DNA of 32,000 bases from Bdellovibrionales bacterium (GTDB lineage Bacteria > Bdellovibrionota > Bdellovibrionia > Bdellovibrionales > UBA1609), in the NCBI GenBank assembly GCA_965247685.1, contig OZ252021.1, positions 870,001 to 902,000 of the forward strand. Reading direction: 5' to 3'. Within the stretch, counting starts at the first letter, position 1, and each line of letters begins with the position of its first letter. Below, in pieces: positions 1,405-21,500 of this stretch. The position numbers and the translations under genes are program-made. The notes under the pieces were generated by a model. It worked only from the letters and a program-made list of their open reading frames with translations. It was not told the origin of the DNA and ran no database searches.

Positions 1405-2916
<1,512 letters not shown>

Positions 2917-3100: not shown

Positions 3101-3670
3101 ATGAAGACTCTAAATAAATTTTTATTTTCTATTTTTTATCTTTCAATTATATTTTTGCTCACGAATTGTGCTTCCTCAGAAGATTGGAGAGATGCTTCGA
3201 GAGCATCTGCTAACATTGCTCCACTTCCTCAAGAAACAAAAGATGCTATTGTGCATGTGTATGCTGCAGCATTGTGGGGAATTAGAGGTCGTTTTGCGGA
3301 TCACACATGGATTGCTACAAAAAAAACTGGAGCTTCTAGTTATAAAGTCTACGAGGCAGTAGGTTGGAATAAAGACCGAGGAAAGAATGCTTTGAGTGTT
3401 TTGTATGATATACCGGATAGGCTGTGGTATGGGAATCAACCAAAACTTCTCTTTAAGTTGGAAGGTAAAGAAGCAGAACCTGTTGTGGACAGAATAGAAG
3501 AGCTGGCAAAGAGGTATCCTTACAAATCGGAATACACTATATTCCCTGGACCTAATAGTAATACTTTTACAGCTTGGATGATTTGTCAGATTCCGGAACT
3601 CGATCTGAAACTTTCTAAGAGAGCTATTGGTAAGAATTATTTAGAAGATTGTGAATTTTCCAAAAGGTAG
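3101..3670 (+). CDS. exported/lipoprotein, DUF3750-like
   Basis: ATG preceded by AAGGAAG. Signal peptide with Cys: ...IFLLTNCAS. The motifs DWRDASRASANIAP, VHVYAA..WG.RG.FA.HTWIA.K, WYGN.P and FPGPNSNTFTAW...IPEL......AIGKNYL match my recollection of the DUF3750 family. Confidence 0.6.
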   Translation: MKTLNKFLFSIFYLSIIFLLTNCASSEDWRDASRASANIAPLPQETKDAIVHVYAAALWGIRGRFADHTWIATKKTGASSYKVYEAVGWNKDRGKNALSVLYDIPDRLWYGNQPKLLFKLEGKEAEPVVDRIEELAKRYPYKSEYTIFPGPNSNTFTAWMICQIPELDLKLSKRAIGKNYLEDCEFSKR

Positions 3671-3709: not shown

Positions 3710-4489
3710 ATGAAATATATTATTATATTGTTTTTGTGGATATGTTTATCTTGTGCTTCTCAAACGTCGCCTGATTCTCAAACGTCGGCTCATAAAGATG
3801 CAGAAGCTCAAGAAGTGAATCCAGAAGAAAAAGAAAAGGCCTCTTCTACTCAGAGTTCAAAAGATTCCTCTTCTTCACAAAAAACTTTTGTTGTCCCTTT
3901 TCAATCTGATCAGTGGCATTCTTTAGAGTATAGCTCCATTCCTTCTCATGAAGTTACATTTGCATCCGATCATATTCAAATTAAAGTACGAAGTTCAGCT
4001 TCTCCTTTGATTTATCCTATGAAGGATAACCCGCTCCTTGTGAAGCAAGTTTCTATAAAAGGAGTTGTGAGTCAGTTACTCAATATCTCACCTGCTGAAA
4101 AGCAAGGGGAGAAAGGGCTCGATGATTTTAATTTAAGAGTAGGTTTAGTTTTGCTAGGTGCAAAACGACTGGAGTGGTATCAAAAGCTTACGGCTGCAGA
4201 CTGGATTAAGCAAATGTTTGCACTAGCACCAAAAGATCAAGGTATTGATCATGTATATTTTCTTAATGGTGTTTTATCTCCTTCTTTAGTTAATAAAAAA
4301 CGCACACACCCATTATCCAAATATATTAAAGAACATTATGTTTGGTTGATGAATCAATCAGGAGTTTTTGATTATACCTATACTCTTGAGCAGCCTCGAA
4401 AGACGGTTGCCTTATGGATATCTGTAGATGGAGATGATACAGGCTCTAACTTCGACCTTAAAATCAATAATATCACCCTCTTTAAGTAA
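3710..4489 (+). CDS. lipoprotein of unknown function (faint DUF3047-like pattern, tentative)
   Basis: ATG preceded by AGAGGAA. Lipobox LWICLSCAS, followed by a low-complexity S/E/K linker and a globular C-terminal part. The central ...RSSASPL... motif is reminiscent of DUF3047, but I cannot verify this. Confidence 0.7.
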   Translation: MKYIIILFLWICLSCASQTSPDSQTSAHKDAEAQEVNPEEKEKASSTQSSKDSSSSQKTFVVPFQSDQWHSLEYSSIPSHEVTFASDHIQIKVRSSASPLIYPMKDNPLLVKQVSIKGVVSQLLNISPAEKQGEKGLDDFNLRVGLVLLGAKRLEWYQKLTAADWIKQMFALAPKDQGIDHVYFLNGVLSPSLVNKKRTHPLSKYIKEHYVWLMNQSGVFDYTYTLEQPRKTVALWISVDGDDTGSNFDLKINNITLFK

Positions 4490-4579: not shown

Positions 4580-4656
<77 letters not shown>

Positions 4657-5017: not shown

Positions 5018-6043
5018 ATGAAGTTTCTATTTATTGTTTTTGGTTTAATATTTATTTTTCAGACGTTCGCAGAGGGGCAGACTTCTGGCTCGGATACAAT
5101 GTTGAAGAAAGAGACTTTAGAATCTGAGGAGGAGTCGAAGGAATCTAAAGAAAAGACTGTAGAACCTGGAGAGGAGTCTGAAGAAGAAGTTTTGATGAGA
5201 TTTCTAATGGAAGAAGTTATTCCTGCATTTGGGGGATTTCAGGATTTATTTTTTTCAAATAAACCTTCTTTTGATATTCATTGGACGCCCCAAGGAATGC
5301 AAGTAAGAAATTGTTCCTTTAAATTTCAGCTCAAACAACTTAGAGCAGTACAATACAATCTGGCAGATATAAAACTTTATGGATTTCATTCGAATGCGGA
5401 AATTGGTGATCCTGGGTTTTTGTTTGTTCAAATGTCTTGTGGTGAAGCAGGGTATGTTGAAAATAAAATCCATTTTAATATTAAATTTTTTGTTACAGAT
5501 GAGGAGCTTACTCCTGCTTATTATAGTTTAAAAATTAAAACAATGGATAAAGAACAATTGGATATCAAATTGAAGTCTATTGACATGGATGTAGATATTG
5601 AAACTGCTGATTTTACTTTGATATTGGACCAATATGGTCATACTAAAATTCTACCTCATGAATCTCCTTTTTTAAAATTTTTTGATGAAGAAAAAGCTTA
5701 TATGGAGATTGTTGAAGATGATGGAGAAGATGAATCGAATGGAGATGATAAAGATAATGAGGAAGATGAACAGATTAAAAATATGTATGACATTCCTATA
5801 TCTATTTGGAATCAAATCAATGAAGTAGATAAAGTGTCTTCCGATGAAAATTCTCTAGTTCCTTTGAAAAAGGTCGCTGTGGAACAAACTATTCATTTAA
5901 AGGGTTCTGTCGAGATGTTTTTACCTATTTATAAAGGTGGGGTGAAGGAATACAATCGTGTTGTTGTTCCTATTGTTGGACGTATTTTTTCTCCTGTAAA
6001 AGGTGAAGTTATTCCAATTATTGATATATCTACAAGAAAATGA
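5018..6043 (+). CDS. secreted protein of unknown function (acidic tracts)
   Basis: ATG preceded by AAGGGTG. Signal peptide MKFLFIVFGLIFIFQTFAEG. It contains E/D-rich stretches such as EDDGEDESNGDDKDNEEDE. I recognise no family motif. Confidence 0.75.
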   Translation: MKFLFIVFGLIFIFQTFAEGQTSGSDTMLKKETLESEEESKESKEKTVEPGEESEEEVLMRFLMEEVIPAFGGFQDLFFSNKPSFDIHWTPQGMQVRNCSFKFQLKQLRAVQYNLADIKLYGFHSNAEIGDPGFLFVQMSCGEAGYVENKIHFNIKFFVTDEELTPAYYSLKIKTMDKEQLDIKLKSIDMDVDIETADFTLILDQYGHTKILPHESPFLKFFDEEKAYMEIVEDDGEDESNGDDKDNEEDEQIKNMYDIPISIWNQINEVDKVSSDENSLVPLKKVAVEQTIHLKGSVEMFLPIYKGGVKEYNRVVVPIVGRIFSPVKGEVIPIIDISTRK

Positions 6044-6795
6044 AATATTTAAGTTTTTTAATCTTTTTGTTTTTATTGACTGGAAAAGTGGAGAGTCAGT
6101 TATTGTCGTCTGAAGATTCTTCGTTGGATCCAAAAGTTTCATCTGAAATTTATGATAAACCTTCTATATATAGGTATTTATTGGAGCCTTTACTTTCCTT
6201 AGATGAAGCATGGGGTGATACAGTGACCCATTGTAGTGTTTTAGGAGAAGACTTATCTCAGGTGATTCAAATTTATGATGGCTTAGGATCTTGTATTTTT
6301 GAACAGGTTGATTTGTTTTCAGATGAAGAAGAAATTCAGAAAAATATTATTTTTCACATACAAGTAAAGAGTCGGTTATTTGATTTGTTGTTTCAGTGGA
6401 CAGATTTAAGTGTTCAGGACATATTTAATTCTTATTTAGAAAATAATCCTCACAAACTATCCAGCCAAATAACTCTTGAGTTACTTGGTGATGAGCAGTC
6501 TCTTTTTGATGATTTATCTTATTTTGTCTTATCTGAGATGTTTAAAACATCTCTTTCTAAAGATGAGCATAACCTTCAAAATGCATCTCCATTGTTATTG
6601 CAGAAAAAAATTGATACCATTCATCTGAATGTTGTTCCCTATGCAGATGGATTATTAAAAGTGACTTTGAGTTTTTTTGATTCACAGGATGTAGAGTTTT
6701 ATAAGTTAGGAGTTATTACTAATTATTATATTGGTGCAGATGAGTTTTTTGTGACTTCTATAGATCAATACCTAGAGGAAAAGAATGAAGAGTAG
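6040..6795 (+). CDS. secreted protein of unknown function
   Basis: The start shares an ATGA overlap with the upstream stop. Signal peptide MKYLSFLIFLFLLTGKVESQ. No recognisable motif. Confidence 0.75.
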   Translation: MKYLSFLIFLFLLTGKVESQLLSSEDSSLDPKVSSEIYDKPSIYRYLLEPLLSLDEAWGDTVTHCSVLGEDLSQVIQIYDGLGSCIFEQVDLFSDEEEIQKNIIFHIQVKSRLFDLLFQWTDLSVQDIFNSYLENNPHKLSSQITLELLGDEQSLFDDLSYFVLSEMFKTSLSKDEHNLQNASPLLLQKKIDTIHLNVVPYADGLLKVTLSFFDSQDVEFYKLGVITNYYIGADEFFVTSIDQYLEEKNEE

Positions 6796-7978
6796 AATTT
6801 ATATTCTATTATTTTTTTATCCCTCTTTTTTATTTGCTGGAGAATTTTGTAAATTACAGCCTGAGGATTTTGATGAAGATGCCAGGAGTTCTCTTTCGGT
6901 TTTTGAGGAGAATATTGAGAATAAGGTCTCTGATATTTATCGTACTCAATACCCGCATGTAATTAAAAAATTAAAAACTCTTGAAGAGTTGCAAAATAAG
7001 TTAACAAGAATTGAAAATCAGTATAGTCAAAAATACATCAGATCTCCAAATAGACATCCAAGGAATCGTGCGGTGGATCGTTTAAGCAAAAGAAGAAGAA
7101 AAAAGTTATTTTTGAAATTAGCAGAACAAAATATTCATTCTGAATCAGATTTGAGTGATTACTTGAAAAAAATAAAAGTGATTCGTCCTATGTCTTTTGA
7201 CGTATATCAGGATTATTCAAATACAGTGAATGATTTAAAGTCACAAATTGAGGAAGTGAATACGTTGTTATTGGAAATACAATCCTTTGGGTTTCTACAG
7301 TTCCCAGATTTTGGTTTCTCATTAAGAGGAGATAAATTTTATGGACATTTTAAAATGGAAGGATTGTTTCGTGTACCAAAAGATGATTTGTTAAGATTGC
7401 CTTTTTTAAAAATTGGTTTTGAAACAAGTCCTAATACGGTAATCTATTCTTGTGTTCATCTAGATGAGTTTAAACCAGATAACAATCGTATTTATATTTA
7501 CTTTTTAAATACAACAAAACTTGATATTTTGCGTAGGACAGATTTTATAATGCGTCCGATTTCGTCTATTCGTAATTTGTTAGGGCTTAGCCAAGAGCCT
7601 CAAGCTGTCATTTCTCATTTGCCTTTTGTATTGAATTCTGCAGCTGGTGAGGTTTCCGAGACGTTGAGTAACTTGGGTCAAGTTCAGCAGATTGGCAATC
7701 ATCCTTCTTTTAATCAAATTATGGATGAAGTTGGTAGATTAAAAATTTTGAATTTTGCAGCAAATCTTAATCCTATTCTTGCAGTGATTAATGATAATGT
7801 GCAGATCGGTGTTCAGGGCTTTGTTATTCATCCGGACAAACTGCAAATTCGATATGCTGGAACAACCTTATATGGTTTTATTAATTTTAATTTACCTACT
7901 CAAAATCAGAGTGTGGATTTTTCATCTTTTATGAATATTATAACTCTGGACTTAAATAGTGACAATGTTGATCTTTAG
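6785..7978 (+). CDS. secreted protein of unknown function with a strongly basic patch
   Basis: The start overlaps the upstream gene by 11 nt. Signal peptide MKSRIYILLFFYPSFLFAGE. Basic segment RSPNRHPRNRAVDRLSKRRRKK. No recognisable family motif. Confidence 0.75.
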   Translation: MKSRIYILLFFYPSFLFAGEFCKLQPEDFDEDARSSLSVFEENIENKVSDIYRTQYPHVIKKLKTLEELQNKLTRIENQYSQKYIRSPNRHPRNRAVDRLSKRRRKKLFLKLAEQNIHSESDLSDYLKKIKVIRPMSFDVYQDYSNTVNDLKSQIEEVNTLLLEIQSFGFLQFPDFGFSLRGDKFYGHFKMEGLFRVPKDDLLRLPFLKIGFETSPNTVIYSCVHLDEFKPDNNRIYIYFLNTTKLDILRRTDFIMRPISSIRNLLGLSQEPQAVISHLPFVLNSAAGEVSETLSNLGQVQQIGNHPSFNQIMDEVGRLKILNFAANLNPILAVINDNVQIGVQGFVIHPDKLQIRYAGTTLYGFINFNLPTQNQSVDFSSFMNIITLDLNSDNVDL

Positions 7979-8243: not shown

Positions 8244-9041
8244 TTAAAGCGAGAAAATAGGATTTTGTAAACTGTATTTTTCTAACATATTCTTCATTTT
8301 TTGTTTTCCCCATTCTTTTTCTTTCTGTTTAAGTTGATTGGGTGTGACTTTTGAAAAACCTTGGAGATCTTTTCTCATCTTGTCTTTGACTGCATTTTTT
8401 CCGATAAGGTCTTCTATAAATTGAACTATTTTTTTTAGTTCACTGAGATTGATTCTTGAAAAAGCTTGGAGATTTTTCTTCATTATTTCTCTGGTAGCCT
8501 CTTTTTCGATGTAGTTTTCTATAAATTGAACTACTTTTTTTAGTTCGCTGAGATTGGCTCTTGAAAAACCTTGGAGATCTTTTTCTATCCTTTCTCTGGT
8601 AGCCTCTTCTCCAATGTAGTCTTTTATAAATTGAATATTATCTTTTATATTCTTCACTGAGTTTTTATGAAAACCGCTCAAGGATTTTTTTAAACGTTCG
8701 TTCACCCCCTCTTTTTCTATATAATTCTCATAGAGCTTGACTCTTTCCAAAAAATTCTTAAATCGAAAGAGTTTAAAATAAGAGACTGCTCGGATTCTTT
8801 TTAAAGTTTCCTCTTCTCCGATTCGATTGATTAAAAAATTGAGGAATTCTTTCATTTCAGGTTCATCCCAAGACTTTGTAGTTTCTGTTACCTTAGTTTT
8901 CCAATTTTTAGGCATCTCAGAATTGAAGTTTTTTCCTATTTGATTTTTTGCAAACTGAATAAAGACATGCTCACATTTACCTTGAGCAAAAGAGTTAAGA
9001 GCAAAAAGTAAAGTAAATATATGTATGCGAAAAGAATGCAT
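8244..9041 (-). CDS. secreted 35-residue tandem-repeat protein, short paralog (5 repeats)
   Basis: The ORF runs 8244-9056 (270 aa). The second ATG (9039-9041) lies 8 nt after GGGAG, whereas the first ATG has no SD. Signal peptide MHSFRIHIFTLLFALNSFAQG. The body is made of 35-aa units such as NLSELKKVVQFIENYIEKEATREIMKKNLQAFS. The N- and C-terminal parts are near-identical to the 830-aa paralog. Confidence 0.85.
   Translation of the reverse strand: MHSFRIHIFTLLFALNSFAQGKCEHVFIQFAKNQIGKNFNSEMPKNWKTKVTETTKSWDEPEMKEFLNFLINRIGEEETLKRIRAVSYFKLFRFKNFLERVKLYENYIEKEGVNERLKKSLSGFHKNSVKNIKDNIQFIKDYIGEEATRERIEKDLQGFSRANLSELKKVVQFIENYIEKEATREIMKKNLQAFSRINLSELKKIVQFIEDLIGKNAVKDKMRKDLQGFSKVTPNQLKQKEKEWGKQKMKNMLEKYSLQNPIFSL
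8352..8666 (-). repeat. 3 canonical in-frame 105-bp (35-codon) repeats inside the 270-aa CDS
   Basis: Residues 131-235 of the ORF. The 'F-S' dipeptide recurs at residues 164-165, 199-200 and 234-235. Confidence 0.85.
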
Positions 9042-9097
9042 ATTTTTAACTCCCATTAATGAAGGGCCATTTGAAGGAAGTTAGAACATTTTAGCGT

Positions 9098-9273: not shown

Positions 9274-11751
9274 TTAAAGCAAGAAAACAGAATTTCGTAA
9301 ATTGTATTTTTCTAACATATCCTTCATTTTTTGTTTTCCCCATTCTTTTTCTTTTTCTTTAAGTTGATTGAGTGTAACTTCTAAAAAGCTTCCAAGATCT
9401 ATTTTTATTTTCTCTTTGACTGCCTCTTCTTCGATGTAGATTTCTATGTACTTAACTACTTGTTTTAATTCATTGAGTTTAGCGTCTGAAAACCCTCGAA
9501 GACCTTTCCTTATTTTCTCTCTGACTACATCTTCTTCGATGTAGATTTCTATAAATTGAACTACTTTTTTTAGTTCGCTGAGTTTAGTATTTAAAAAAGA
9601 TCGGAGATCTTTCTTCATTATCTTTCTGGTAGCCTCTTTTCCGGTATAGCTTTCTATATACTTAATTACTTGTTTTAATTCATTGAATTTAGCATATGAA
9701 AAAGCTTGAAGATTTTCCTTCATCATTTTTATTGTTGCCTCTTTTCCAATATAATTTTCTATATGCTTAATTACTTGTTTTAATTCATTGAGATTGGCAA
9801 TTGAAAAAGATCGGAGATCTTTTTTCATTATCTCTCTGGGTGCCTCTTCTTCAATGTAGCTTTTTATAAATTGAACTACTTTTTCTAGTTCACTGAGATT
9901 GGCTCTTGAAAAAGATCGGAGATCTTTCTTCATTATTTTTATTGTTGCCTCTTTTCCGAGATAGTTTTCAATATACTTAACTACTTTTTCTAGTTTGATG
10001 AGTTTGGCTATTGAGAAACTTTCAAGATTTTGTTTCATTATTTCTTTGATTGCCTCTTTTCCGATATAGTTTTCTATAAATTGAACTACTTTTTCTAGTT
10101 CGCTGAGTTTAGCATATGAAAGAGCTTGAAGATTTTTTTGTATTATTTTTATTGTTGCCTCTTTTCCGATATAGTTTTCTATAAATTGAATTACTTTTTC
10201 TAGTTCGTTGAGGTTGGCTATTGAAAAACCTTTGAGATTTTGTTTCATTCTTTCTTTGGTTGCCTCTTTTCCGATATAGTTTTCTATAAATTGAACTGCT
10301 TTTTCTAGTTTGCTGAGTTTAGCCCTTGAAAAAGCTTGAAGATTTTTTTTCATTATTTTTATTGTAGCCTCTTTTCCGATATAGTTTTCTATATACTTAA
10401 TTACTTGTTTTAATTCATTGAGTTTGACATATGAAAAAGCTTGAAGATCTTTTTTCATTCTTTCTTTGATTGCCTCTTTTCCGATATAGTTTTCTATATA
10501 CTTAATTACTTGTTTTAATTCATTGAGTTTGACATATGAAAAAGATCGGAGATCTTTTTTTATTATTTCTCTGGTAGCCTCTATTCCGATATAGTTTCCT
10601 ATATACATAATTATTTTTTTTAATTCATTGAGATTGGCGTCTGAAAATCCTCGAATACTTCTCCTTATTCTCTCTCTGATTGCCTCTTCTTCGATGTAGA
10701 TTTCTATAAATTGAACTGCTTTTTCTAGTTCGCTGAGATTGGCATTTGCAAAAGATCGGAGATCTTTTTTCATTCTTTCTTTGGTTGCATTTTTTCCGAT
10801 ATAGCTTTCTATATACTTAACTACTTTTTCTAGTTTGCTGAGTTTGGCTATTGAGAAACCTTCAAGATTTTGTTTCATTATTTCTTTGGTTGCCTCTTTT
10901 CCGAGATAGTTTTCTATAAATTGAACTACTTTTTCTAGTTCGCTGAGTTTAGCCTTTGCAAAAGCTTGAAGATCTTTTTTCATTCTTTCTTTGGTTGCCT
11001 CTTTTCCGATATAGTTTTCTATAAATGGAACTACTTTTTTTAGTTCGTTGAGGTTGGTTCTTGAAAAAGCTTGGAGATCTTTTTTCATCCTGTCTTTGAC
11101 TGCCTCTTCTCCGATGTAGTTTTTTATAAATTGAACTACTTTTTTTAGTTCACTGAGATTGGTATTTGAAAAAGCTTGAATATTTTTCTTCATTATTTCT
11201 CTGGTAGCTTCTTTTCCGAGATAGTTTTCTATAAATTGAACTACTTTTTTTAGTTCTCTGAGATTGGCTATTGAAAAACCTTGGAGATCTTTTTTTATCC
11301 TTTCTCTGGTAGCCTCTTCTCCGATGTAGTTTTCTATAAATTGAATATTATTTTTTATATTCTCCACTGAGTTTTTATGAAAACCGCTCAAAGATTTTTT
11401 TAAACGTTCGTTCACTCCATCTCTTTCTATATAATTCTCATAGAGATTGACTCTTTCCAAAAAATTCTCAAATCGAAAGGATTTAAAATAAGAAACTGCT
11501 CGGATTCTTTTTAAAGTTTCCTCTTCTCCGATTCGATTGATTAAAAAATTGAGGAATTCTTTCATTTCAGGTTTATCCCAAGACTTTGTAGTTTCTGTTA
11601 CCTTAGTTTTCCAATTTTTAGGCATCTCAGAATTGAAGTTTTTTCCTATTTTATTTTCTGCAAATTGAATAAATACATGCTCACATTTACCTTGAGTAAA
11701 AGAGTTAAGAGCAAAAAGTAAAGTAAATATATGTATGCGAAAAAAACGCAT
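9274..11751 (-). CDS. secreted 35-residue tandem-repeat protein, long paralog (21 repeats)
   Basis: The ORF runs 9274-11766 (830 aa). The SD-supported second ATG is at 11749-11751. Signal peptide MRFFRIHIFTLLFALNSFTQG. The F-[SAL] dipeptide recurs every 35 residues without any indel from residue 164 to 795. It is 560 aa longer than the 270-aa paralog, which is exactly 16 x 35. Confidence 0.9.
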   Translation of the reverse strand: MRFFRIHIFTLLFALNSFTQGKCEHVFIQFAENKIGKNFNSEMPKNWKTKVTETTKSWDKPEMKEFLNFLINRIGEEETLKRIRAVSYFKSFRFENFLERVNLYENYIERDGVNERLKKSLSGFHKNSVENIKNNIQFIENYIGEEATRERIKKDLQGFSIANLRELKKVVQFIENYLGKEATREIMKKNIQAFSNTNLSELKKVVQFIKNYIGEEAVKDRMKKDLQAFSRTNLNELKKVVPFIENYIGKEATKERMKKDLQAFAKAKLSELEKVVQFIENYLGKEATKEIMKQNLEGFSIAKLSKLEKVVKYIESYIGKNATKERMKKDLRSFANANLSELEKAVQFIEIYIEEEAIRERIRRSIRGFSDANLNELKKIIMYIGNYIGIEATREIIKKDLRSFSYVKLNELKQVIKYIENYIGKEAIKERMKKDLQAFSYVKLNELKQVIKYIENYIGKEATIKIMKKNLQAFSRAKLSKLEKAVQFIENYIGKEATKERMKQNLKGFSIANLNELEKVIQFIENYIGKEATIKIIQKNLQALSYAKLSELEKVVQFIENYIGKEAIKEIMKQNLESFSIAKLIKLEKVVKYIENYLGKEATIKIMKKDLRSFSRANLSELEKVVQFIKSYIEEEAPREIMKKDLRSFSIANLNELKQVIKHIENYIGKEATIKMMKENLQAFSYAKFNELKQVIKYIESYTGKEATRKIMKKDLRSFLNTKLSELKKVVQFIEIYIEEDVVREKIRKGLRGFSDAKLNELKQVVKYIEIYIEEEAVKEKIKIDLGSFLEVTLNQLKEKEKEWGKQKMKDMLEKYNLRNSVFLL
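9382..11376 (-). repeat. 19 canonical in-frame tandem 105-bp repeats (1995 bp) inside the 830-aa CDS
   Basis: Residues 131-795. Consensus roughly x-A-[NK]-L-[SN]-E-L-[EK]-K-V-V-Q-F-I-E-N-Y-I-G-K-E-A-T-[KR]-E-[IR]-M-K-K-[DN]-L-[QR]-[AS]-F-S. Confidence 0.95.
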
Positions 11752-11807
11752 GTTTTTAACTCCCATTAATGAAGGGCCATTTAAAGGAAGTTAGAGCATT
11801 GTAGCAT

Positions 11808-13291: not shown

Positions 13292-13986
13292 TTTGTGTTG
13301 CTAATTGGAAAATGAATCATAATCTGGAAACAGCTCAAGATTTTTTGATGCAATTTAAAGATCAGATTGAAAAAAAAGATCAAAATTCTTTTATTTTTTT
13401 AGCACCAGCTCTTTTGTTTTCTGTTGTTAGTCAAGAACTTCAAGGTACAGATATTCAATGGGGAGGGCAAAATTGTTTCTTAAAAAAATCTGGAGCTTTT
13501 ACAGGAGAAAATTCACCAGCATTGATGCACGAAATGGGGGCAACTCACTGTCTTGTTGGGCATAGTGAGAGACGTTTATTGTTTGGTGAAAATCAAGATA
13601 TGATTGTAAAAAAAGTAGAATCTATTATTGAAAATAAAATGACTCCTATTCTTTGTGTGGGTGAGCAAAGGCAAAGTGATCAATGGAAAGAAGTTATAAA
13701 ATCTCAATTGAATGGTCTGCTTTCAATTCCGTCACTCATGATCGCTTACGAGCCTATATGGGCTGTTGGATCTAAAAATTCTGCTTGTGTGGAGCAAGTT
13801 CAAGAAGTCATAAATTATATTCTTCAAATGGTGTCTTCTCCAGTTCCAATTTTATATGGGGGAAGTGTGAGTGTATCTACTGCAAAAGAATGGAAATCTG
13901 CTCAAAACCTAAGTGGATTCCTGATAGGGAGAGCTTCTTTGCAAGTGGATTCTCTGCTCTCTATTTACAAACAGATCTATTCTTGA
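13288..13986 (+). CDS. tpiA: triose-phosphate isomerase
   Basis: The ATG at 13288 forms an ATGA overlap with the ogt stop. Motifs present: ANWKMN, VGHSERR, AYEPIWAVGS, YGGSV. The track ORF from 13156 is only an upstream in-frame extension overlapping ogt. Confidence 0.92.
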   Translation: MICVANWKMNHNLETAQDFLMQFKDQIEKKDQNSFIFLAPALLFSVVSQELQGTDIQWGGQNCFLKKSGAFTGENSPALMHEMGATHCLVGHSERRLLFGENQDMIVKKVESIIENKMTPILCVGEQRQSDQWKEVIKSQLNGLLSIPSLMIAYEPIWAVGSKNSACVEQVQEVINYILQMVSSPVPILYGGSVSVSTAKEWKSAQNLSGFLIGRASLQVDSLLSIYKQIYS

Positions 13987-15140
13987 GAAAACGGTTTATA
14001 TTTATAAAAAGTTAGGACTCCTTCTTCTAATTTGGTATTTTTAACGTCACTGTTTCTTTCGATTGAAGATTTATACATTTCCATAAATAGTAAAGTGCTA
14101 CTTTTTGTTTCTGCATCCATATGAACAGGTTCAACAATGTTGTAGTGTTCCCACAACAAGTAAGGAGTATAATTTGAATCGACAATACAATGAGTAAGAA
14201 TACTAGTGTTGAGTTTATTGTATATCTTAACCCATAACGATAAAAGCTGTAGGTTGTGCATGATATTAGGGAACTGCTCAAGAGATTTCATTTTGTCATC
14301 TTGGTACATATGGTCCATTAGTGTTTGAAGAAATGGAACTTTCATTTGAGACCAGTGATTCAAGTAAGATATTTCTGTATTATCAGATTTGATTTCTTGT
14401 AGTGTATATAGAAAGTATAAAAAATTCATCAACTCAGGTTCTTGTTGACTTAAATAAGTGTCCACTCGTTTTTGCAATATATCAAAAAAAGGTAAAAGGA
14501 TATGTTGAGAATCATCTGTGGATTGGCACAGAGCTTGGCTTCTTTCTGTTAAAAAAGTATATACTGTACCCTTGAGATTGACCCCATTGAATTCGAAATT
14601 ACTGTTCTGAACAGGAAATGATGAATGCTTTTGGTAAGGCGGGACTAGATTATGTACGAAAAACGGCTGAGTTCCCGTTGTCTGAATGAGTAGATCTTTC
14701 ATAAGTGTTTGTTCTGTGATTTTTTCTAATTGATTCAAAGATGGTTGAGAAATATTTTCAGAAATAAATTGTGTCAATGACAAGAAAGCCTTCCATACAT
14801 TTAAATTATTGATTTTTAAATTACCTTTGTGGTTGAGGGTGAGGTTTTTCAGGACAGTTGAATATAAAATATATTGATCGGCAATAGGACTTTCACATTG
14901 AGAAGAGTATTTTATAAATTGTCGAATATACTCCATCGGCTGAACAGGTTGTTTAATGTTATTCACAAATTTTTCTAATTCTAAACAGTAACTGATGTTT
15001 TGAGTGCTTTTTGTAGACTTTGTTGAATGAGAGGGAAGAGTTTCTACAACATCTGTATTCATTTTTTCTTCAGCTTGCAACAAGGGAGAGACCCATAAAC
15101 ATATTGCTAATAGAACAAGTTTACATCGATTGCTTTTCAT
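13977..15140 (-). CDS. exported protein of unknown function
   Basis: ATG preceded by GGAGG about 10 nt upstream. Signal peptide MKSNRCKLVLLAICLWVSPLLQAEE. The start lies 20 nt inside the 3' end of the kamA-family gene. No recognisable motif. Confidence 0.75.
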   Translation of the reverse strand: MKSNRCKLVLLAICLWVSPLLQAEEKMNTDVVETLPSHSTKSTKSTQNISYCLELEKFVNNIKQPVQPMEYIRQFIKYSSQCESPIADQYILYSTVLKNLTLNHKGNLKINNLNVWKAFLSLTQFISENISQPSLNQLEKITEQTLMKDLLIQTTGTQPFFVHNLVPPYQKHSSFPVQNSNFEFNGVNLKGTVYTFLTERSQALCQSTDDSQHILLPFFDILQKRVDTYLSQQEPELMNFLYFLYTLQEIKSDNTEISYLNHWSQMKVPFLQTLMDHMYQDDKMKSLEQFPNIMHNLQLLSLWVKIYNKLNTSILTHCIVDSNYTPYLLWEHYNIVEPVHMDAETKSSTLLFMEMYKSSIERNSDVKNTKLEEGVLTFYKYKPFSQE

Positions 15141-16326
15141 GACGGTTTGAACCTCCGTACGGCTGATTTTTAATTAGATTCCATTCTTTCAAGTAGGGCA
15201 TCATTGATTTTTCATCAGGTAACAGAGAAACTTCTGGGTTGCAATAAGTCGACTCTATTCCGTCAAATCCTTTGTGCGTGGATCCGCTTTTTGTTTTTTT
15301 AATCAAATGATCTGGAGTGAGCTCCACTTTTCCTCCCCCATCAGGCAAGTCCATACTGAGACGGGGAAGAGCTAATCCAGATAAAATTCCCCACAACTCT
15401 TTTTGAATCCATTTAGAGTTTTCTATTGTTGTACGAAAGTGATTCGTACCTAAAGATGGATCGCATTGGAACATATAGTAAGGGTGAGTGCGCAAAGAAA
15501 GAAGCCTTCGATTTAATGCTTGAACAAGGGCAGGGTGATTATTAATTCCATTAAGTAGAACCATTTGATTGTAGACGGAAATGCCGTTATTGGAAAACCT
15601 TAGAAGATGATCGGCGCATTCATAAGTGAGTTCATCGGGATGATTGAAATGTGTCATGATGAATACAGGCTGGTGTTGTTTGAGAATCTCCATCAGTTCC
15701 ACATCGAGTCGAAAGGGGCAGACCACTGGCATGCGGCTACCTATACGAATGATTTCAATATGTGGAATACTTCTAATATCTTTCAAAATACGATGAATTT
15801 TATTATTAGAAAGAGTCAAAGGATCTCCTCCAGATAAAATCACTTCTCGAATTCCTTTGTTATTTTTGATGTATTCCATTGCATTTTGATATTCATTTTT
15901 AGGAACTACATGGTGACCTTGAGCAGTAAAATATTTTCTTGTGCAGTACCTGCAGTAAATTCCACAAAAATCAGTAATCAAAAATAGAACTCGATCGGGA
16001 TAGCGGTGAATGATTCTAGAGGTTGGACTATGTGCATTTTCTCCTAAGGGATCTTTTTGATGAAAACCTTTAGAATCTAATTCTTTTAAATGAGGTAAGG
16101 CTATTTTTTGCAGAACGGAATTTTGTTGTATGACCTTTGCGTAATAGGGGGTAGATTGGACAGCGAACTTTTCTTGAATTAAAGAAAAAGAATTTTCTTC
16201 AAGATGGAAAAGAGATTTAAAATCTTTCTCTGATTTTAAAGAGTTTTGCATTTGCCAAGTCCAGTTTTCCCATTGATCTTGAGAAACTTTTAAAGGAGGT
16301 GTTATTTTTTTATAATCAAAAATCAC
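15121..16326 (-). CDS. KamA-family radical SAM aminomutase (lysine 2,3-aminomutase-like)
   Basis: CGIYCRYCTRK is a CxxxCxxC motif (Cys codons within 15943-15966). The N-terminal W..W.WQ..N motif is present, as are SGGDPL, NQMVLLNGIN, YYMFQCDPSLG..HFR and DLPDGGGK (PLP lysine). The start is a GTG overlapping the upstream stop (GTGA). Confidence 0.85.
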   Translation of the reverse strand: MIFDYKKITPPLKVSQDQWENWTWQMQNSLKSEKDFKSLFHLEENSFSLIQEKFAVQSTPYYAKVIQQNSVLQKIALPHLKELDSKGFHQKDPLGENAHSPTSRIIHRYPDRVLFLITDFCGIYCRYCTRKYFTAQGHHVVPKNEYQNAMEYIKNNKGIREVILSGGDPLTLSNNKIHRILKDIRSIPHIEIIRIGSRMPVVCPFRLDVELMEILKQHQPVFIMTHFNHPDELTYECADHLLRFSNNGISVYNQMVLLNGINNHPALVQALNRRLLSLRTHPYYMFQCDPSLGTNHFRTTIENSKWIQKELWGILSGLALPRLSMDLPDGGGKVELTPDHLIKKTKSGSTHKGFDGIESTYCNPEVSLLPDEKSMMPYLKEWNLIKNQPYGGSNRHEKQSM

Positions 16327-17603
16327 GGCTTGTTTCTCTGCGAAGGAGGATTCTTTTTGAAAGGAAGGGCAGTTCTAATGAAATTTCCGTTATATCTTCG
16401 ATTCAAATCATGATGAGTTAATTCTGAAAGCTGAATGGCAGATGTTTCGAAAACAGTATGTGGTTGCCGATACATATTGTGTAAAAATAGTAAGGGAGTG
16501 GTAAAGAGTTCATATTTGAAGGAAAGAGATCGAAGCTTATTGGTTTGTGAATCATCGTTTGCATAATTTTCTTCCTTTTGGGATAGGTAAGGCTGATAAT
16601 TCTGTACAGTGAGCTGTTCTTCAAAAGTATAAGGGTAACAAGAGCTCACTTCGTAGAGAAAACTTCGTAAAAAGGTCACATACTTAATGCTGCGTACAAG
16701 TAGACTTAGATCTTGTTGAAATTGCGGATCGATTAGTTGAAATAGAGAATCTGGAATCTCTATGATTTGGTAGTAGTTGAGGTTATTAATATCTAAGTGC
16801 TGATAAAAACTGTAATGGTCTTTCATAGAGCGAACAAGGTTGAGAGTAGTGATGTAAAAAATTCTTATATAGTTGTTTTGCTGAAGCCATTGAGTCAGCG
16901 ATTGTTGTTGTGTATTTACTTCTTCCCCTATCTCTTTATATTTCTCATAAAGGCTAGAGTTGCAAAATACGTACTGGGCTGGAGTCAGTTGAATATTTGT
17001 TCCAGCCGTTAACTGGGATAGCAGGTTGAGGTTAGAGGACTCTTCCTTATCAGAATCTTTAGGATTGGTAAATCTCAGTACTCGATTAATGTCTTTGTAT
17101 GGAGAGTTAAAATAATCATCTATTTGAATACTACTTCGGAATTGGGCAGTTTGAATATTTTCTTCAGTATGTTGAGGTTGAAGACCTATATTTTGTATTT
17201 TTTGCGTACTGTTTATGGGGATTTTTAACATTGTTTTAAAACCATGTTGTATTGCATACTCTACTAGAGATTGAGGAGGGTTGAGGGATTGTATGTTCCT
17301 TGCAACTCCTTTTTCAAGCAAGGTTTTGATGCGAAAAAGACTTTCAGTGGCAGTCATCTGAAATGTACTTGGAAGAGGTATGTCTTTGTGGTGATTGCTC
17401 AATTTCTCCATGGTAGAGAGTTTAAGTAATTCTAAACATGAGAAATCTATAGGAGTATTTAATGTAGATATTTTTCTAATTTTTCCTACTAAAGTGGACT
17501 CACCTTGAGTTGCGTTGTCACATAATGTAGTCGTCTCTTGCCCCCACAAACGAATTGGCAAATGAAGAACGACAAGGGCGATAAAAAAATAACATTTTTT
17601 CAT
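16323..17603 (-). CDS. exported protein of unknown function
   Basis: ATG start. Signal peptide MKKCYFFIALVVLHLPIRLWGQE. Q/N/Y-rich, with no recognisable motif. The stop overlaps the kamA-family start. Confidence 0.75.
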   Translation of the reverse strand: MKKCYFFIALVVLHLPIRLWGQETTTLCDNATQGESTLVGKIRKISTLNTPIDFSCLELLKLSTMEKLSNHHKDIPLPSTFQMTATESLFRIKTLLEKGVARNIQSLNPPQSLVEYAIQHGFKTMLKIPINSTQKIQNIGLQPQHTEENIQTAQFRSSIQIDDYFNSPYKDINRVLRFTNPKDSDKEESSNLNLLSQLTAGTNIQLTPAQYVFCNSSLYEKYKEIGEEVNTQQQSLTQWLQQNNYIRIFYITTLNLVRSMKDHYSFYQHLDINNLNYYQIIEIPDSLFQLIDPQFQQDLSLLVRSIKYVTFLRSFLYEVSSCYPYTFEEQLTVQNYQPYLSQKEENYANDDSQTNKLRSLSFKYELFTTPLLFLHNMYRQPHTVFETSAIQLSELTHHDLNRRYNGNFIRTALPFKKNPPSQRNKP

Positions 17604-17760
17604 AGGAGTAATTTTATATATAAAAATTCCATGTATGTAAACGACGTATTGTAAAATAATCTAGAATGCGAACAAGTATAACTAACAGGCTATATCTTTT
17701 TTTTACACATCGAGTTAACATGCTTTTCATATGAATTTAATCAATGGTAGAAGCTAGAGC

Positions 17761-18534
17761 ATGTATTGTTTAAGATTTTTTTTTATATTTTTAATTTTTT
17801 GTTCTACAGTTTCTCATGCCATGAGTTGGAAGGGGGAATGGCAAACTCGTTTTTATAGACCTATTCATTATTCTCAAAACGATTGGGATGATTTTACGGT
17901 TTATCATAGTTTACTTTTTGGGGTTCTTGCAGAAACATTTGAAGATACCCAAAACACATTACAATGGACTGTCAATATGAGCTACAATCATCCCTTAAAG
18001 AAAGTTCCGAAGGTGTACGGTTGGGGGCCTTTGCAATTTGGAGTTTCATATAAAATTTATCCTTCTTATCAATTATTTGTTCATCTCGCCACCTCATATT
18101 TAAAAGATTTTTATACGAGTCCTCTCTTATTTGGTTTTGAGTGGGGAGGTCGAAAGACTTTTGCTTTTAAGACTTTTTCTTTGGAATGGGATCATTTCAT
18201 ATCTTTTAACGCCCCCCGTTACCTTTTAAGAAGTTTTTTAGGGAGTTACTTTCATAATAATCTTTTATCTTTGGGTTCTTCTATTGACTGCTATACTTCG
18301 ATCTACAAGGGGTGGCAACTTTACTCTCGATGGGGTTTTTATACATTCTATACTTATTCAAAAAATCTTTACTATACATGGGATTCAGAATGGATTTTAT
18401 CGTATTCTATGCATCGATGGAGTGTCTTCTTCTCATTTATTAAGAACTTTAACAGCAGAGAGTTTTTAAATATGCAAAACTTTACTGCTTATGACAAAGC
18501 ATTACATACAGGTATAAAAATTAATTTTCTATAA
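17761..18534 (+). CDS. putative small outer-membrane beta-barrel protein
   Basis: Signal peptide MYCLRFFFIFLIFCSTVSHA. The sequence is very aromatic-rich (W/Y/F) with an alternating pattern and has a C-terminal ...GIKINFL. The assignment rests on composition only. Confidence 0.6.
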   Translation: MYCLRFFFIFLIFCSTVSHAMSWKGEWQTRFYRPIHYSQNDWDDFTVYHSLLFGVLAETFEDTQNTLQWTVNMSYNHPLKKVPKVYGWGPLQFGVSYKIYPSYQLFVHLATSYLKDFYTSPLLFGFEWGGRKTFAFKTFSLEWDHFISFNAPRYLLRSFLGSYFHNNLLSLGSSIDCYTSIYKGWQLYSRWGFYTFYTYSKNLYYTWDSEWILSYSMHRWSVFFSFIKNFNSREFLNMQNFTAYDKALHTGIKINFL

Positions 18535-18540
18535 ATTGAT

Positions 18541-21500
18541 ATGAATAGACTTGTGTTTTTGATCAAAATCTTGTTTATAGAGTCAGAAATGATGCAGATA
18601 TTATATAAAACTTTTTATTTTATCTTTTTGTGTGCCACGGGGTTGTCTTGTACATTAGAGCTCCCTCTTCAATTTTCTCCTAATAGTGATAAGCAAGATC
18701 AAGTTTTTTCCATTGAAGATATCCATCAGTTGGAATGTGGTATTCGAACTTTATCTGCTTTTGAAGAGAACAGCTTGGAGATTTCAGCCCAGCATTTAGT
18801 GATTGAGGCTAATCAACCGCCTTCGGTAGTTTTTCCTTCAGAGTCTTCTCTCGCGCCGCCTATTATTAACAATTTACCGTTTGTTCAGTATCAAGTGGAG
18901 GGTTCGTCCGTCTGCGAATTATTACTTGCTCAAAAAACAATTCGTCTGATAGCTCAGCCGAATGAATATTATAAAGTTCATTTTCAAATTGTGGGTTCTT
19001 ATTTAAGAGTGTTTATATCTGGAGATCTTCATCGTCTTCCTTATCAATGGCTTTCTCAAAGAGTAGTGATGAAAAATGGTCAGTATGCACTACCTATTGG
19101 AGTTTATTCTATTCTTCAAGGTCGTGTACAACCAATGAAAAATGTAGAAAATGAAGAAATCCACATTTTAGATTTTTTCCCCAACGAAGAACCTTTGGTT
19201 CGATTTGAAGATTCAAAAGGGCTGGTGCATTGGGTGCGTTCGGAGTCTCAAGATATTTTTATTGTCGATTTGAATAAAGGGCTGACTTCTTATCAATACC
19301 AAGAGAAGAAAAATATTTTACCTAAAAATTATTTTGATGGCGAGTGGTACTCTCAGGTGAGTTTACATTTAACAGAACCATTAAAGTCGCAAGGGGGATG
19401 GGGCTCTGGTGTAAGTGTCTCTGGTAACAACTATTCTGGAAAAATGTTGGGGCAAAAAATATACTTTAAATTTGAATTCCAAAATTTAAAGGCCCTAAAT
19501 TATAACTATGCCCATCAAACTCAATCTTTGAACTTAGGTGCAGAGGCTGAAGCTTTATCCATTCCTATTGAGCATTTGGACTATCGCAATGTTATAAATA
19601 AAAACGAGGATGTGTCTCAAGAAAAGCTGGACAAGTATACTTCATGGCAAGACAAGAAATATATTTCTGCTCATTTTGATAAAGTATCTGACTTTTTTAG
19701 AGATTGGGTGAAAAGAGTAGGGGTTCGATATGGCTATGACTTGTCTGATACGACGACTTTGAAAGAAATTCGTTTTGCTTCAAACTATTTTGACTTTGTA
19801 GTTTATGATGGGACTTTTGAATATCGCTTTTCTTTCTTCAAAAAAGAAAAAGATTCTCACTATAAACCTAAAACTATAGCTGCCACAGATTTAAGGTTTG
19901 AGTTTTTTAATGTTCCTTATAATCAAGTTTTTTCTTCACCTTTAGACTCTTTTAATCGAGAGTATGAGGAAAAAATTAATCTTCTAAGACCTCAGCCTGA
20001 CAAAGATGGTAATATTCATATTCACTTTTCTCGTTTGACTCCAAAGAACGATAAAACTCGAAGTATTGGTCGTGAAGCAGTTTTCGTTTGGAATCAAGCT
20101 TTAGAAAAGGCAAGTCTTCCCTTAAAACTTGTATTGCATGAAGATAAGGATGTGAACCTTGGAGACAGTCGATATCATGTACTCCATATACCTGAGGAGC
20201 TGAAAAAAGCTTATGGAGGAATTGCTCAAACACTGGTGGATGACGAAACGGGTGAGGTGATTTCTTCAACTTCCACAGTTCTTTTAGATGATTATAAATT
20301 TTTTCTAGAGAAAAAAATTATTGATTATGTATACACCAAGTATAGTTTGATTAATTCTATAACGAGTCCCTTTGTTGATTATCCAAAAATAAAGAATAAT
20401 CGTTTTGCACATAGTTTTTCTCAAGAAAAGCTTCCTTTTTCCGTAGATACTTTAGAATATGTGTGGGTTCAACATACCATGAACCAGCATCAAAGTGTGA
20501 TTTTCCCTCGTTCTGTAAAGAATTCTTGGTACGATAGTATTCTTCAATATTTCGAATTTAAAAAAGATGTGCGAAAGAATTGGCTGCAAACACTTTCTAA
20601 TCCTACCATCTCAGACATTAGTCACTTACCTCCGGAACTGAAAGCGTGGTGGAATGATTTTAAACTGCAGTACGCTTTAATACATCAAAAGTTTGTGGAA
20701 GAGGAAAACTGGAATACTATTCTAGAAAATGTTCGGCAATGGGGAGCAACGAGTGAATATCGTTCAATAGCTTCTAGTAATTTACATCAAACCTTGTCTA
20801 AAGTGTGTCACTTCCTTCCTCATCCTCTCCAACAAGAAAAAGATGTTTTTAAAACAGCAGTTCGACAATGTGTCGAAGCTATTCTTCCTATATATGGTTT
20901 AGGAATAGCTGTTCATGAAATAGGGCATTCCATTTTTTCTCTTCGTCATAATTTTGCAGGAAGTACAGATGCTCATAATATTAAAAACTCCCCCTCTTAT
21001 CAATTGAAGCATCTTAAGTCTTATCTTTCTTACACTGATTCAAAAGGTCAAAAAACTTCTCTTGAAGATCAATTTAATCCTGTATCCTCTTCTGTCATGG
21101 AATATATTGCTGTTGCAGATGGAGATCAGTGGGGACCAGGTTCTTATGATATTGCAGCGATTGAATATTTATTCGCTGACTTTGGTGTTTCGTCCAAAGA
21201 GTCTGTTGAAAAAGATTCTGTTGAAAAATTTTCCAATCATTTTGAAAGATGCTCGGATTATGAAGTTAATACTTCTGCTTATTGTCTCACTCACGACAAA
21301 GGTGTGACTCCTCTGGAAATTACAAGAAATGAAGTACGCAATTTATTAGAATACTTGAATCAAAACTTTTATGATCTCGAATATTCGGTATCACCTCTTA
21401 AATATCATTTCACTTTATTCCGCCAGATTAAAAAGTTAGTGGTAATTTACAGTGACTGGAGGGCGAAGCTACGTAATCTATCTGTTCAATTTTTGAATGA

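Follow-up and report, generated by a model that had tools for sequence, protein, structure and literature searches.

What does a secreted bacterial protein recognise when it carries 19 tandem repeats held in an exact 35-residue register, with variation strongest at a couple of fixed positions? The question is raised by a gene in the window analysed here, by which we mean the whole stretch of 32,000 nucleotides (nt) at forward-strand positions 870,001-902,000 of contig OZ252021.1, from the Bdellovibrionales bacterium (UBA1609) assembly GCA_965247685.1. The gene, delimited from the list of open reading frames and its translation (9274-11766, minus strand), encodes an 830-amino-acid (aa) secreted mTERF-like repeat protein that we call A830. 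An earlier note on this DNA had proposed a rigid scaffold with one hypervariable column, read as a candidate recognition code of the kind used by transcription activator-like effectors (TALEs) and pentatricopeptide repeat (PPR) proteins. Structure prediction, sequence comparison and analogy with characterised proteins point elsewhere: A830 is a secreted bacterial mTERF-like tandem-repeat protein, for which a modular recognition surface in the form known from mTERF and pTERF proteins is plausible.

The repeat array and its variable columns

The array consists of 19 canonical mTERF-like motifs (residues 131-795; 9382-11376, minus strand), in which the pattern [FYH]I[EKG]..[YL] occurs 19 times at a spacing of exactly 35 residues, and Tandem Repeats Finder describes the gene as 18.8 copies of a 105-nt period with 79% matches and 1% indels. 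Two degenerate units (residues 61-95 and 96-130) share the register of the canonical array, which brings the total to 19-21 units. Much of what the earlier note had read from the letters was recovered unchanged on re-reading: the 19 repeats of 35 residues without indels; the sequence of residues at column 1, the first position of each unit (K,I,N,R,K,I,N,D,Y,Y,R,I,Y,I,R,I,Y,N,D), with its six residue types; the narrow choice at column 2 (A13 T3 V2 N1) and column 3 (K10 N8 S1); the mosaic of scaffold subtypes; and the identity of the first 22 residues in the units that start at residues 411 and 446, which are units 9 and 10 in our numbering and 11 and 12 if numbering begins with the degenerate units at 61 and 96.

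Column 1 had also been taken, by eye, for the most variable position, and the entropies agree (2.50 bits, followed by column 32 with 1.85, column 5 with 1.72 and column 26 with 1.61). Its codon varies at all three positions and has seven distinct nonsynonymous variants (6, 5, 4, 4, 4 and 4 in the columns that follow), a parsimony reconstruction, on a tree of the repeats from which codon 1 was left out, assigns it 12 changes (9, 8 and 7 in the next columns), and it contributes 9-12% of the nucleotide differences between closely related units against an expected 2.9%. Family-wide, over 212 homolog repeats, it again leads with 3.67 bits, ahead of column 32 (3.50) and columns 5 and 16 (3.31 each). 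Column 1 therefore ranks first, with a contrast to the other surface columns that is moderate. Of the picture of a rigid scaffold with a single hypervariable column, the absence of indels and the leading place of column 1 stood; the rest was overstated, since 25 of the 35 columns of A830 have two or more nonsynonymous variants at codon level, and variability is marked at column 32 as well.

The pattern that recurs from array to array is that of a variable pair, columns 1 and 32, rather than of one column. Both are among the three most variable columns in three independent arrays, namely A830, the locus L004 (OZ241840.1) and the eight-unit array of L007 (JANQSX01), and both rank high as well in the metagenomic homologs P0007, P0022 and P0008. 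Over nine canonical units of the L004 array, column 1 is R, T or N and column 32 is Y, Q, R or L, the first unit having E at column 1. Duplication has shaped the A830 array too, blocks A5-A6 and A13-A14 corresponding to each other, as do units A7 and A18. Units A5 and A13, 95% identical, differ by a three-nucleotide K-to-Y change that was discounted, a duplication breakpoint at the unit border explaining it equally well. Nor is positive selection demonstrated: pairwise counts in L004 are striking, but counts of distinct variants give no significant nonsynonymous excess.

Predicted fold and register on MTERF1

The fold of the repeat was modelled on B270, a 270-aa paralog next to A830 (8244-9056, minus strand) that comprises a signal peptide, N-terminal domain, three canonical repeats and cap, and is 100% identical to P0152, which is encoded on a public contig of 1.28 Mb. 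The depth of the alignments for structure prediction was restricted, a word-index homolog search giving 3, 10 and 1 matches versus 205 in an exhaustive one. With an alignment of 15 sequences, the AlphaFold2 model of B270 reaches a predicted local distance difference test score (pLDDT) of 89 and a predicted TM-score (pTM) of 0.80, with a helical N-terminal domain region and three helices per repeat (residues 134-148, 150-159 and 162-166, then 169-183, 185-194 and 196-201, and onward). Helix boundaries in A830, transferred from the equivalent repeats of this model, would place a first helix (H1) at columns 4-18, a second (H2) at columns 20-29 and a third (H3) at columns 32-35, continuing into column 1 of the unit that follows. 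H3 follows the pattern x32-[GAS]-F-[SA]-x1, so that columns 32 and 1 are its first and last residues, one helical turn apart, while the conserved F34, which lies between them in sequence, is presumably a buried anchor. Column 1, placed by the earlier note in a loop between two-helix repeats, is by these boundaries the residue with which the third helix, five residues long, ends.

When the B270 model was compared with the Protein Data Bank (PDB) by Foldseek, all matches at ranks 1-11 were mTERF proteins (MTERF1, MTERF3 and MTERF4), at modest E-values of 3e-3 to 1. Ranks 1-9 (MTERF1 and MTERF3) have TMq 0.46-0.56 at probability 1.0, and ranks 10-11 (MTERF4) TMq 0.35-0.40 at probability 0.77-0.95. 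The complexes of MTERF1 with DNA, including 5cky and 3mva (for these two, TMq 0.56 and a deviation of 5.0-5.7), superpose with TMq 0.51-0.56 and a root-mean-square deviation of 4.6-5.7 at probability 1.0; chains of mitoribosomes come next, with Tetrahymena 6z1p_BY at rank 13 (TM 0.56) and 7pkt_N at rank 14. The best TALE, 9jo8_A, reaches TMq 0.30 at probability 0.25, and PPR proteins are absent from the PDB matches listed for the B270 model. This model and the sequence comparisons that follow identify the repeat unit of 35 residues as an mTERF motif that has diverged, with a long H1, a shorter H2 and a five-residue H3. The solenoid half of the earlier proposal thereby holds, since this is a class of alpha-solenoids whose characterised members bind nucleic acids and whose variable residues here sit at the inter-repeat junction; the analogy with TALE and PPR architecture gives way to three helices per repeat and to structural neighbours among mTERF proteins.

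That analogy is not without sequence backing. The period of 35 residues suits it, a phmmer search of PDB sequences with A830 brings up chains of TALEs at E 5e-8 to 1.5e-5 and designer PPR proteins (dPPR) at E about 1e-3, a null made by permuting columns attains the TALE score just once in 200 trials (8 times for dPPR), and the NCBIfam AvrBs3 model finds A830 at 17.5 bits, far below its cut-off of 1000. The phmmer scores are, however, sums of repeat against repeat: the TALE stretches are singly insignificant (i-Evalue 0.17-5, about 11 bits per 150 residues), and the null itself attains up to 45 bits for TALEs and 91 bits for dPPR. The register is also wrong, for the alignment sets the repeat-variable diresidue (RVD) of TALEs, which occupies positions 12/13 in the loop between the two helices, on columns 16-17, the second of these being Tyr in every repeat, and column 1 on TALE Q31. 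The family profile has no match among TALEs, and the Pfam PPR models have none in A830. Homology to TALE or PPR proteins was therefore rejected as an identity for A830.

Other database matches fared similarly. Pfam SapB_1 (PF05184) scores 67 bits on A830 and 25.9 on B270 (gathering threshold 25.2), and P0152 carries PF05184 in a precomputed table; the score is summed over repeats that have an mTERF-like predicted fold and are free of the cysteines whose conserved disulfides stabilise a saposin, and we regard the assignment as a false positive liable to spread through automatic annotation. The NCBIfam model of the Wolbachia TomO 'host RNA manipulator' matches A830 residues 191-240 with 25 bits, far below its cut-off of 350.

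A direct link to mTERF proteins comes through longer relatives. The Pfam mTERF model (PF02536) matches 7 of the 44 long members found by phmmer with A830, among them P0125 (81.9 bits), P0042 (43.9) and P0129 (39.3) against a cut-off of 23.1, and all three carry the N-terminal domain of the family. The match in P0042 spans a stretch directly homologous to B270 residues ~100-235, that is, to its repeats. In P0125, 'EKNPKPFSRGDLSE' aligns with 'KKNLQAFSRANLSE' of A830, and because the one stands where the other does, column 31 would be the position of the mTERF S-loop proline. Proline itself is present at column 31 in only 8 of 202 homolog repeats, as in 'EKNPKPFS' of P0125, a protein for which a search of PDB sequences gave no match.

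The register on human MTERF1 is based on these proline-bearing homologs and on the helix boundaries. The MTERF1 sequence used is 100% identical to PDB chains across residues 55-399, and the published residue numbers were confirmed on it. An hhalign alignment of the family profile to MTERF1 pairs L31 with P201, column 32 with R202, F34 with F204, S35 with S205 and column 1 with N206, so that columns 32 and 1 align with MTERF1 positions P+1 and P+5, counted from the proline. MTERF1 makes hydrogen bonds to guanines through R202 and R350, and it is the prolines of the S-loops that follow the major groove (PMC4705650). R202, R350 and F243 are all at P+1, R169 is at P+5, and R387 lies four residues past W383, the equivalent of the proline; F243 is, moreover, one of the three residues mutated in the PDB 'RFY' entries. 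F243 has a role in the stacking of flipped bases, and MTERF1 is not known to have a one-motif-one-base code. By this alignment, then, the two most variable columns of the array appear to coincide with the base-contact edge of MTERF1.

An exported family and what its arrays may bind

A830, B270 and the 176-aa paralog C176 are members of an unannotated family of exported, basic alpha-solenoid proteins. An exhaustive phmmer search recovered 205 cluster representatives at E<=1e-3, 133 of them at E<=1e-10, and six loci from species-representative genomes are all labelled 'MAG: Bdellovibrionales bacterium' (MAG, metagenome-assembled genome), on contigs or chromosomes of up to 1.0-2.2 Mb. The N-terminal domain of A830 (residues 26-130, including the two degenerate units; 11377-11691, minus strand) bears the family signature VFIxFA...W...W...FLxFLxxRIGxExTLKRI..SYF...F..RV.LYE.YIGeEGV..RL..SL.GF, and a profile of this domain matches 128 of 154 family proteins. 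A typical member has 220-330 aa and 3-4 canonical repeats, as B270 does, and among the arrays examined A830 with its 19-21 units is the longest and most regular, the others having at most 12. Tandem clusters of paralogs recur elsewhere, with three genes each at loci L001 and L008. The three tandem genes of L001 (2886-13213) encode proteins of 1066-1228 aa with double units of ~80 residues, and the L004 gene (5995-7554) has an expanded array of its own, of 10 nearly identical 35-residue units. Since L004 and L001 have their own arrays, expansion has been repeated and independent within the family.

Export is predicted from the N-termini. A830 begins with a putative Sec signal peptide (residues 1-25, MGVKNMRFFRIHIFTLLFALNSFTQG; 11692-11766, minus strand), a hydrophobic N-terminal segment and a Cys are conserved across aligned homologs, and a crude test for a hydrophobic stretch is positive in 102 of 153 members that start with Met, so that A830 and its relatives are probably exported by a Sec signal peptide. 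The family-conserved Cys is Cys28 in A830 (11683-11685), within the motif C-E-x-x-F-S; a Cys 1-3 residues past the predicted cleavage site is found also in P0011, P0023, P0025, P0032 and others, usually in a context that is not a canonical lipobox, and many long homologs end in a C-x-x-x-[FL] motif. These conserved cysteines may mark a disulfide or an anchoring signal. Mature A830 is strongly basic (isoelectric point, pI, 9.5; net charge +42), as is B270 (pI 9.66), beside a pI of 9.27 for MTERF1. A few members are fused to other domains, among them the metagenomic P0116, P0044 and P0073. P0116 combines a signal peptide, the N-terminal domain and repeats with an endonuclease-like REase_MTES_1575 domain and three HRDC domains downstream; REase/DUF559 domains are found in P0044 and in one other member, and ankyrin repeats in P0073.

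The account that we favour overall, and to which we give about even weight for and against, is that A830 is an mTERF-type solenoid that contacts nucleic acid through columns 32 and 1. The motifs would stack into an mTERF-type superhelix whose ridge of H3 helices tracks a nucleic-acid major groove, double-stranded DNA being the likeliest ligand, with columns 32 and 1 (P+1 and P+5) as the contact positions; different residues at these two columns would then change the preferred sequences. Because the protein carries a Sec signal peptide, its ligand would lie outside the cytoplasm, as periplasmic, environmental, prey or host nucleic acid, and an extracytoplasmic DNA ligand is conceivable for a Bdellovibrionales organism. 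The arrays themselves would lengthen and shorten by unequal recombination between tandem paralogs.

Several results weigh against this account. The full-length A830 model is poor (pLDDT 61, pTM 0.35) and was set aside, its Foldseek matches being generic solenoids with TM < 0.2. PF02536 has no match in A830, B270 or 32 short members even at E<=1, the alignment of the profile to MTERF1 alone is not significant (probability 0.4%, E 0.16), and at column 31 the conserved mTERF proline (motif position 8) is replaced, A830 having L17 I2. A Sec signal peptide would direct the protein to a location where DNA is not the normal ligand, and the 3-4 repeats of most members are too few for long specific sites. 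The richness of A830 in Lys may partly be a product of a genome with 30% GC. Homologs frequently have an aliphatic residue (I, L, V or M) or else R/K at column 1, residues that would fit a half-buried, tolerant surface position just as well. Finally, the codon-level comparison that the earlier note had called for gave no support to diversifying change: nonsynonymous to synonymous variants show no excess over neutral expectation in A830 (85:15, p=0.10), L004 (23:3, p=0.18) or L007 (45:24).

The last two points lead to the alternative that survives best, possible in our view though doubtful, namely that no exposed positions are under less constraint than columns 1 and 32 in an array recently expanded by unequal crossing-over. 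The protein would then serve as a non-specific binder of polyanions or DNA, or as an envelope spacer, with no code and no information in the identity of these residues. Codon ratios compatible with neutrality, the spread of variation over 25 columns, the small lead of column 1 over columns 32, 5 and 16 across the family, the block duplications that account for part of the pattern, and C176 as a sign of a locus in flux all speak for it. Set against it are the recurrence of the same two leading columns in three independent arrays, including L004 with its almost invariant scaffold, their position on one face of H3 that maps to base-contact positions of MTERF1, and the chemistry of the residues found there (R, K, N, Q, D, Y, I and T), which is more diverse than at other exposed columns (K/Q/E or S/N).

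A solenoid that binds a peptide, a protein or a cell-surface polymer of prey or host, with an H3 face made diverse through an arms race or through antigenic variation between the tandem paralogs, seems unlikely. Such a role would agree with the signal peptide, with the clusters of tandem paralogs that several MAGs contain and their differing repeat numbers, with the ankyrin fusion, and with a neighbourhood made up mostly of secreted orphans, and an mTERF fold can have a protein as its partner, the MTERF4-NSUN4 complex among the Foldseek matches being an example. Fusions to REase-type nuclease and HRDC domains, by contrast, point to DNA, as does the strongly basic character of A830, and the mTERF and pTERF proteins of the papers cited here bind DNA or RNA.

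More ambitious than the favoured account, and quite unlikely as it stands, is the idea of A830 as a naturally programmable, secreted reader of double-stranded DNA, in which 21 mTERF-type motifs would wrap several turns of DNA, the pair of residues at columns 32 and 1 would set the local base preference, and a predatory or host-associated bacterium would deploy the protein, with nuclease-fused relatives, on prey or host, possibly organellar, DNA. If true, it would add a second modular DNA-recognition scaffold to the TALEs, with a code open to decipherment. A TALE/PPR-type code, in which a two-helix repeat reads one nucleotide through a single hypervariable residue, is largely refuted by the fold and thus very improbable, and no evidence was found for one repeat reading one base.

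The locus and comparison with known systems

The locus holds three tandem paralogs, the number that the earlier note had given: B270, A830 and C176, of 270, 830 and 176 aa. A830 ends in a C-terminal cap or tail (EVTLNQLKEKEKEWGKQKMKDMLEKYNLRNSVFLL) and a stop codon (9274-9381, minus strand) that translations and a DNA alignment of the three 3' ends show to be common to the paralogs, and the 3' flanks of the three genes are ~90% identical over more than 100 bp. C176 (11962-12492, minus strand) has one repeat, whose nearest A830 unit is unit 19 (88% nt identity), and a frameshifted tail, the DNA alignment showing near its 3' end a 1-nt insertion that is absent from A830 and B270. Its N-terminal domain is fused at 'RIG' straight to the 'KEATREIM' of a late repeat, a joint that looks like a recombinational deletion, with C176 as a deletion derivative and decaying copy.

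The genes around the array are mostly secreted orphans. At lower coordinates in the window, a 16S rRNA gene (1405-2916, plus strand) stands with no 23S gene next to it and is followed by a DUF3750 gene (3101-3670), an orphan (3710-4489), tRNA-Ile(GAT) (4580-4656) and further secreted orphans; unlinked rRNA genes would fit a reduced or host-associated genome. Farther on, an 1806-aa protein (18541-23961, plus strand) has a hydrophobic N-terminal segment, the zinc-metalloprotease motif HEIGHSIFSLRHNF and a weak Met-zincin DUF4953 match, and orphans with signal-peptide-like N-termini lie near it (5018-7978, 13977-15140 and 16323-18534). What an exported DNA-binding solenoid might do in a small-genome Bdellovibrionales bacterium is a matter of interest in its own right, prey DNA handling, DNA uptake and host manipulation being candidate roles; a literature search found no paper linking mTERF with Bdellovibrio.

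Compared with TALEs and TALE-like proteins (AvrBs3, Hax3, BurrH, MOrTL, STAR), the A830 family shares a bacterial origin, secretion, tandem helical repeats of 33-35 residues, variation at few positions and a weak, summed sequence similarity. It differs in a distinct predicted fold with three helices rather than two, in variable residues that lie off the RVD-equivalent position, in a scaffold far less invariant, and in predicted export by Sec as opposed to type III secretion.

The resemblance to mTERF proteins (MTERF1, MTERF3 and MTERF4; PF02536) goes further. Both have a three-helix motif of ~33-35 residues predicted or known to stack into a superhelix, and mTERF proteins are the best structural matches; the conserved 'x-x-F-S' short helix is the apparent counterpart of the helix that follows the S-loop proline; the long helix ends in a Gly turn, the pI is basic, and some homologs of A830 pass the Pfam threshold, although A830 and B270 go undetected by that model. 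The A830 family is bacterial and predicted to be Sec-exported, whereas eukaryotic mTERFs are imported into organelles; its motifs in A830 follow one another in strict tandem, nearly identical and always 35 residues long, in contrast to the degenerate and interspersed motifs of eukaryotic mTERFs; A830 has Leu or Ile in place of the S-loop proline; and the family has a signature N-terminal domain of its own with a conserved Cys.

To our knowledge, mTERF proteins were long considered specific to eukaryotes. Prokaryotic relatives that bind DNA tightly were first reported in 2024 as pTERF, so that a protein of the A830 kind is already known in prokaryotes; they are described as prokaryotic 35-residue mTERF-like tandem repeats, with MBQ3414883.1 as pTERF1, in 'Systematic discovery of DNA-binding tandem repeat proteins' (NAR 2024, PMC11417379). 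They form the period-35 cluster TR_35_C32_2, with three helices per unit, 3-11 units and low identity to eukaryotic mTERFs, and come from MAGs that are mostly Bacillota, pTERF1 itself from a rumen Clostridia MAG (PMC11417379). pTERF binds DNA, the motif ACTNNNAGTC with a dissociation constant of 1.9 nM; another homolog binds a motif of its own, and the authors suggest that the scaffold could be reprogrammed (PMC11417379).

A830 is likened to pTERF through the published description of the latter alone: it, too, is prokaryotic and built of strictly tandem 35-residue units with three predicted helices. Domain databases annotate mTERF motifs in pTERF1 but not in A830, and the signal peptide and N-terminal signature domain of the A830 family are described for pTERF in neither case. 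The genome matches of the A830 family are all Bdellovibrionales MAGs, and A830 has about twice as many units (19-21). The locus would in this way represent a second, apparently independent bacterial lineage, of ~205 cluster representatives, exported, equipped with its own N-terminal domain and sometimes fused to nucleases. Because its units are near-identical save for a few positions that match the base-contact sites of MTERF1, A830 should be a good natural test of how far an mTERF-type solenoid can be reprogrammed, the very property suggested for pTERF.

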